Virus record (IMG/VR): IMGVR_UViG_2537562194_000011
Length of the DNA: 5,320 bases
Origin: a virus
Taxonomy: Duplodnaviria > Heunggongvirae > Uroviricota > Caudoviricetes
Reading direction: 5' to 3' (one strand)
Positions within the stretch are counted from its first letter, which is position 1. The number at the start of each line of letters is the position of its first letter. The notes under the pieces were generated by a model. The model was not told the DNA's origin. It worked only from the letters and a program-made list of their open reading frames with translations, and did no database searches. A program made the position numbers and the translations under genes. Below are positions 3,319 to 3,921 of this stretch, in pieces.

Positions 3319-3921
3319 CTAATCAGAACTTATAACCGACACCCACGATGAAACCGTCAGTGCGCCAGTCGCCACTGCCGGAGCCTTCATAAGCAATATC
3401 AATGGCCACGGATTCGGTCGGGTTAAACTGCACGCCAGCCCCCACGCCAGAGACGTGTTGCTGTGGCGACCGTCATCACTTCCGGTCAGCACGTCGTGCG
3501 TTTTCCCCTTGTTGTCAGTTACGCGGAGATAATCCCCGGAGAAAGTCGACACACGGCTGTAAGCCACGCCCGCCATCGCATACGCGCTGAACCATTCATT
3601 CACGCGCACAGACGGCCCCGCCATTACGCTGAACCAGCGGTTACGAACGGAATCTTCATGCCAGCGGGTATCGCTGTAATGGGTCAGCTGGCGATTCCTG
3701 TCTCCTGCATAGCTGAACGACGTCACCATCCCCAGTGTGTCCGTAAACTCATAACGGTATTTCACGTTAATTCCGTTCAGTTCATCGCTGCCAGGAACGT
3801 TCGTCGAGACATGAAGATACCCCGCGCTCAGCGTGGACTGATGTTCAGACGCCCATGCAGGCGCACCGGATACGGCCAGACAGATGGCTGCGGACAAAAT
3901 GGCGGCATAAAGTTTACGCAT
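3319..3921 (-). CDS. lom: Lom-family outer membrane protein (Ail/OmpX-like beta-barrel), 3' end frameshifted as sequenced
   Basis: ATG at 3919..3921 preceded by a GAGAGG-like RBS. Product begins MRKLYAAILSAAICLAVSGAPAWA (signal peptide) and matches lambda Lom from memory through ...HSNTSLAWG (residue 161). After the C5 run at 3439..3443 the called frame gives an unrelated 39-residue tail ending at TAG 3319..3321. The frame one base over reads AGVQFNPTESVAIDIAYEGSGSGDWRTDGFIVGVGYKF then TGA at 3323..3325, which matches the Lom C-terminus. Confidence 0.85.
   Translation of the reverse strand: MRKLYAAILSAAICLAVSGAPAWASEHQSTLSAGYLHVSTNVPGSDELNGINVKYRYEFTDTLGMVTSFSYAGDRNRQLTHYSDTRWHEDSVRNRWFSVMAGPSVRVNEWFSAYAMAGVAYSRVSTFSGDYLRVTDNKGKTHDVLTGSDDGRHSNTSLAWGLACSLTRPNPWPLILLMKAPAVATGALTVSSWVSVISSD

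Follow-up and report, generated by a model that had tools for sequence, protein, structure and literature searches.

Lom of phage lambda (206 aa, PDB 9wso), OmpX (1qj8) and Ail (3qra) are homologous eight-stranded barrels of the same Pfam family. Assembly of outer-membrane proteins by the BAM machinery requires a C-terminal aromatic beta-signal. In lambda, lom lies between J and stf and its product ends in ...DIAYEGSGSGDWRTDGFIVGVGYKF. Nearer to the gene considered here is the lom of the nleC prophage of Escherichia coli 95NR1 and 95JB1 (protein WP_001230459.1), two O111:H- strains isolated in the Adelaide HUS outbreak of 1995. The finished genomes of these isolates are PacBio assemblies in which homopolymer indels were fixed with Illumina reads (PMC6602927), the Illumina run of 95JB1 being SRR954273 (PMC6602927). 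In both of them a run of six G (G6) is found in lom, and lom, stf and tfa are intact (600, 1,314 and 270 nt, respectively, in 95NR1). Other described loci, annotated as 'frameshifted' in complete E. coli genomes, carry a run of five G (G5) in an identical 61-nt context and continue into the same out-of-frame tail as the locus studied here, for instance those of RM8426 (I3M_RS14875) and an 86-24 derivative (BHW76_RS30100).

The stretch of DNA analysed, hereafter the window, is the complete 5,320-bp contig AEZV02000045.1 of the draft assembly GCA_000194355.2 of E. coli O111:H- JB1-95, AEZV being listed under that strain (PMC3359367). Its lom is one G short of the G6 of the 95NR1/95JB1 locus and its stf/tfa region differs from that locus by six more indels. 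In records of the RM8426 and 86-24 type, the break is usually the only lesion of lom and stf is mostly intact, whereas the window carries a cluster of seven indels. Of 5,426 complete E. coli genomes, 95NR1 and 95JB1 matched the window best (99.0 %, against 98.6 % for the next one); judging from its name, its serotype and this best-hit status, JB1-95 is likely to be 95JB1 itself or a sibling isolate. As developed below, the frame break of lom is very probably an error in the deposited draft sequence and not a property of the bacterium.

All genes of the window are on the minus strand, in the order J-lom-stf-tfa-nleC, which is also that of 95NR1. The 3' part of the tail tip gene J (3989..5320) runs off the contig end and is free of internal indels. 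Downstream of lom, stf and the tail-fibre C-terminal gene (tfa) are fragmented over 1678..3264 into ORFs 2389..3264, 1948..2226 and 1678..1914; the stf region matches phage_tail_N and two small fragments match Phage_fiber_C (Pfam), the deposited record listing the split stf/tfa products as small proteins of their own. The type III effector zinc protease gene nleC is intact (259..1245; Peptidase_M85, E = 1e-111). Its product is an NF-kB p65-degrading effector with a HEIIH motif, and the gene is located inside 1..1902, all of which is identical to 95NR1. A consensus scan identified two terminator-like hairpins with a T-run on the minus strand, one in the gap between J and lom (3951..3970) and one just 3' of the true lom stop (3275..3296); a sigma-70 consensus promoter was sought by scanning 3150..4100 and none was found there. 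The location of lom between J and stf, on the same strand and with terminator-like flanks, corresponds to the layout of a lambdoid 'moron'. The window is the right-hand, late-region end of a lambdoid prophage that carries nleC in an EHEC strain.

In the ORF listing, lom is called from 3921 to 3319 (minus strand, 200 aa), with its ATG at 3921..3919 and the stop codon of the frameshifted product at 3319..3321. The 5' part, read in the frame of the start codon (3444..3921, minus strand), encodes a putative signal peptide and the barrel strands up to ...SLAW, and shows zero differences from 95NR1 in the pairwise alignment. By inspection, the N-terminus (MRKLYAAILSAAICLAVSGAPAWA, with the putative cleavage site before SE) resembles a Sec signal with an AxA cleavage motif. 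Next comes the G5 run (3439..3443 on the minus strand, C5 on the plus strand), which is short by one base compared with all close relatives. The called frame reads ...NTSLAWG and then, past the GGGGG at 3443..3439, LACSLTRPNPWPLILLMKAPAVATGALTVSSWVSVISSD; the adjacent frame past the same run reads AGVQFNPTESVAIDIAYEGSGSGDWRTDGFIVGVGYKF and ends at 3323..3325, the true lom stop. On the minus strand, this 3' part (AGVQFNPTE...GVGYKF, 3323..3438, within an adjacent-frame ORF spanning 3323..3445) encodes beta7, beta8 and the C-terminal Phe.

Both frames were compared with the Pfam profile Ail_Lom (PF06316), for which the gathering cut-off is 23 bits, and both scored above it. The called frame matched profile positions 1-164 of 199 (E = 1.2e-95, 319.4 bits) and the adjacent frame positions 161-199 (E = 5.7e-20, 72.4 bits). 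As the match switches from one frame to the other, we are dealing with a true one-base break relative to the family and not with a chance resemblance. The preliminary description of this DNA had the product matching Lom up to ...SLAWG and broken by a single base at the plus-strand C5, and the profile comparison agrees with it on both counts. It had also placed the expected aromatic-ending Lom C-terminus in the adjacent frame, with its stop at 3323..3325; this is where profile positions 161-199 are found, and the C-terminal sequence of lambda Lom is identical to that of this frame. An alignment with lambda Lom (9wso), OmpX and Ail mapped the break to the start of the penultimate strand. The last barrel strands are indeed replaced, beta7, beta8 and the C-terminal Phe being left in the other frame. 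The last 25 residues of the solved lambda Lom structure (PDB 9wso) are exactly those of the window Lom. With its 199 aa, the latter is a divergent allele and not lambda Lom itself: the N-terminal two thirds differ between them by many substitutions and by indels in the loops (phmmer E = 2.7e-49).

Adding one G to the run gives, as predicted from the sequence at the outset, a lom of 199 codons, and all 199 residues of its product are the same as in WP_001230459.1, the lom DNA being otherwise identical to that of 95NR1/95JB1. An eight-stranded barrel ending in an aromatic residue is absent from any single frame of the sequence as deposited and is present after this one-base insertion. C6 had been put forward as the restored state; it is the state of the nearest relatives (G6), but many relatives have GGGGAG instead. 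Among 83 lom loci, 81 were in frame, reading either TGG GGG GCT (n = 30) or TGG GGA GCT (n = 51), and the two G5 loci of this set had been chosen for fetching because of their G5. Considering the role of the beta-signal in BAM-dependent assembly, the frameshifted product as deposited would form no barrel. This product is recorded as EIH90936.1 (E. coli JB1-95), and its exact sequence is recorded from AEZV02000045.1 alone.

A base-by-base alignment of the window with 95NR1 revealed 52 differences, i.e. 45 substitutions and seven single-base indels, distributed very unevenly. From 4365 to 5303, within J, there were 43 substitutions and no indel; 3445..4364 contained neither; 1903..3444 contained two substitutions and all seven indels; and 1..1902 again contained neither, so that the flanks of the indel stretch (1..1902 and 3445..4364) are identical to 95NR1 over 2,820 bp. 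The ratio of indels to substitutions was 7:2 inside the cluster and 0:43 outside it (Fisher p = 2.7e-7), and the probability that seven uniformly placed events would span no more than 1,542 of 5,315 bp was 0.003. Natural divergence produces far more substitutions than indels and would not spare the 2,820 bp of flanks.

The change from G6 to G5 in the lom run is one of the seven indels. Three others are private 1-bp deletions in stf, located by the alignment with 95NR1 near 2510, 2397 and 2362 (span 2362..2510, minus strand), which together remove three bases and leave a shifted segment of 148 nt holding a stop at 2389..2391. The last three lie where stf ends and the tail-fibre C-terminal gene begins (1903..1939, minus strand): one base is deleted at 1939 and another at 1903, with one inserted between them at 1924. 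Three consecutive genes, lom, stf and the tail-fibre C-terminal gene, are disrupted in this way, the preliminary description having considered lom and not the six further single-base indels that break the two genes immediately downstream of it. Most of the seven indels are situated outside long homopolymers and only some in runs of at least 3 bases. In complete genomes, the exact stretch bearing the stf deletions at 2397 and 2362 was found in none of 3,126 places, and that bearing the three indels of the tfa junction in none of 136 places. Each of the six indels outside lom was absent from the 19 to 24 alignable loci, taken from viral contigs and genomes, and was thus specific to the window.

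The region in which these indels occur belongs to a repeat with some nine or more copies per genome. 95NR1 has a second prophage in which positions 1608..4951 of the window recur with ~98 % identity, and related genomes harbour 9 to 14 lom copies apiece. The tail genes of such prophages have been described as too repetitive for dependable variant calls, and the draft contigs of these strains stop in such repeats (PMC6602927). At the other end of the window, the J segment 4742..5315 matched 95JB1 and 95NR1 poorly and reached no more than 98.1 % identity in any complete E. coli genome. It may represent a J allele of naturally mosaic origin or else a consensus in which several prophage copies were blended, and its mismatch could mean that the window comes from a different strain or prophage, or that its consensus was blended. 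The extent of the contig, 5.3 kb bounded by repeats, and the low match of this J segment are consistent with a consensus built from pooled copies. The contig departs from the best J match by a single-base indel within its final five bases (5316..5320), apparently an artefact of the contig end.

We infer the error itself, and also its exact mechanism, from sequence comparison. In the mechanism that we propose, the part from J to tfa would be shared, with ~98 % identity, by many prophages of the genome, and reads from different repeat copies would have been pooled, making consensus calling and polishing unreliable. Stray single-base indels could then persist in the repeats, seven of them here, including the one at the G6 of lom. 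In the bacterium itself, lom would most likely be intact (G6) and encode an ordinary 199-aa, eight-stranded outer-membrane barrel of the Ail/Lom type; situated between J and stf and flanked by terminators, it would be expressed as a 'moron'. A blending of prophage copies as the source of the errors is only partly supported: the indel sites coincide with between-copy polymorphism at lom (GGGGGG versus GGGGAG) and at some stf sites, but at 2362, 1924 and 1903 such polymorphism was looked for in the aligned loci and none was found. The edges of the repeat were also considered as the bounds of the indel cluster and set aside, the fit being inexact as 1608..4951 is wider than the cluster; repeat status alone leaves the end of the errors at 3444 unexplained.

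The indels of the window are private, clustered, more numerous than the substitutions accompanying them and absent from the finished genomes of the outbreak clone. In a rough calculation, a local error density of ~0.4 % per base over the 6-base run was set against a prior of ~0.2 % for a real G5, which makes an error about ten times as probable as a real variant before the finished outbreak genomes are counted; as these have G6, the balance shifts further towards error. The preliminary description had deduced that the protein would be non-functional if the sequence is correct. The barrel is incomplete as deposited, but the proviso most likely fails, given that the contig is a draft, that the indels are private and clustered, and that the finished genomes have G6.

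Of the explanations that take the deposited sequence at face value, that of a real pseudogene survives best, although it is unlikely. According to it, replication slippage changed G6 into G5 in the lom of JB1-95, as a step of prophage decay, the barrel being truncated and the protein left unassembled by BAM and degraded. Such a slippage is plausible as a natural event, and prophages of EHEC strains are often defective. G5 in the identical 61-nt context was found in 25 complete-genome records, out of ~13,200 lom copies (25 of 13,241), and G7 at the same run in 11 complete-genome records, copies of abnormal length amounting overall to ~0.3 % of the ~13,200. The G5 lom copies inspected were annotated as 'frameshifted' by PGAP, i.e. 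called as pseudogenes. In addition, the cluster at 90 % identity to which the frameshifted product belongs has 195 members on several allelic backgrounds, and separate events could be recognized in it: G6 to G5, G4 to G3 in the GGGGAG allele ('AWELACS') and an insertion of two bases ('AWGGLACS'). Some products with the alternative tail were present on 16 to 21 short-read (Logan) contigs. Real G-run mutants of lom therefore probably exist in nature, the run acting as a mild hot spot. Lom homologues ending with the alternative C-terminal sequence, which according to the preliminary description would speak against its reading, thus do exist as products, yet they reflect recurrent out-of-frame read-through, flagged as 'frameshifted' by PGAP, and no genuine alternative C-terminus.

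Against a natural pseudogene in JB1-95 stand the six other private indels around the break, accompanied by few substitutions, a pattern that natural decay does not give, and the G6 found in the finished genomes of the outbreak clone. The G5 copies of other genomes are themselves questionable. Four of the seven G5 loci inspected in 'complete' genomes adjoin another frameshifted gene, and one assembly (NCCP 13914) contains both G5 and G7 lom copies. In PNUSAE008512 and PNUSAE008406, whose chromosomes are of near-equal length, the G5 lom sits in different prophages, beside a frameshifted stf in one genome and a frameshifted J in the other. This pattern points to assembly errors left in the repeated prophage regions of genomes labelled 'complete', and it suggests that many of the G5 calls in complete genomes are also errors. 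The 25 G5 61-mers of complete genomes were considered as a validation of the window copy and rejected as such, for they are scattered, flagged as frameshifted and often located beside other frameshifts. It is more doubtful still that the G-run where beta7 begins is a genuine, recurrent mutational hot spot by which Lom is inactivated time and again in the prophages of E. coli, with JB1-95 as one natural case brought about by selection or drift.

Phase variation, in which the G-run of lom would be a contingency tract whose changes in length toggle Lom expression in the population, is very improbable. Variants with G5 and with G7 are both present, and frame breaks recur near the same run on different lom alleles. 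However, the in-frame run is just 6 G long, while known contingency tracts usually comprise at least 8 units, and in 51 of the 83 loci it is interrupted (GGGGAG) with the gene retained. Runs of abnormal length, at ~0.3 % of ~13,200 copies, are no more frequent than the background of mutation or error expected for a 6-mer; moreover, the genomes inspected yielded no clonal pair with on and off lengths at one locus, the two PNUSAE copies with G5 belonging to different prophages. Recoding, by which full-length Lom would be made from G5 through a -1 slip of tRNA-Gly on U GGG GGC or through transcriptional slippage, has next to no likelihood: a reading of the sequence indicates that a -1 shift re-pairs GGG perfectly with GGG and regains the correct frame, but G UGG GGG CUG in the zero frame lacks an X XXY YYZ heptamer, efficient transcriptional slippage needs a longer run than five G, conservation of the frameshifted arrangement is lacking, 81 of the 83 homologues being in frame, and the six other indels, in non-slippery contexts, are left unexplained. 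The surrounding sequence and the state of the homologues led us to reject both programmed frameshifting and phase variation.

An error in the draft sequence of JB1-95 remains the explanation that we retain for the frame break. This lom is an ordinary Ail/Lom gene in the canonical prophage position. If the break were true, it would make lom an ordinary pseudogene of an accessory prophage gene, with small consequence. More generally, frameshifts in the multi-copy tail regions of lambdoid prophages are unreliable in draft or lightly polished assemblies, and EIH90936.1 and the split stf/tfa products should not be taken as evidence for a loss of lom or for tail-fibre decay in the Adelaide O111:H- outbreak clone.
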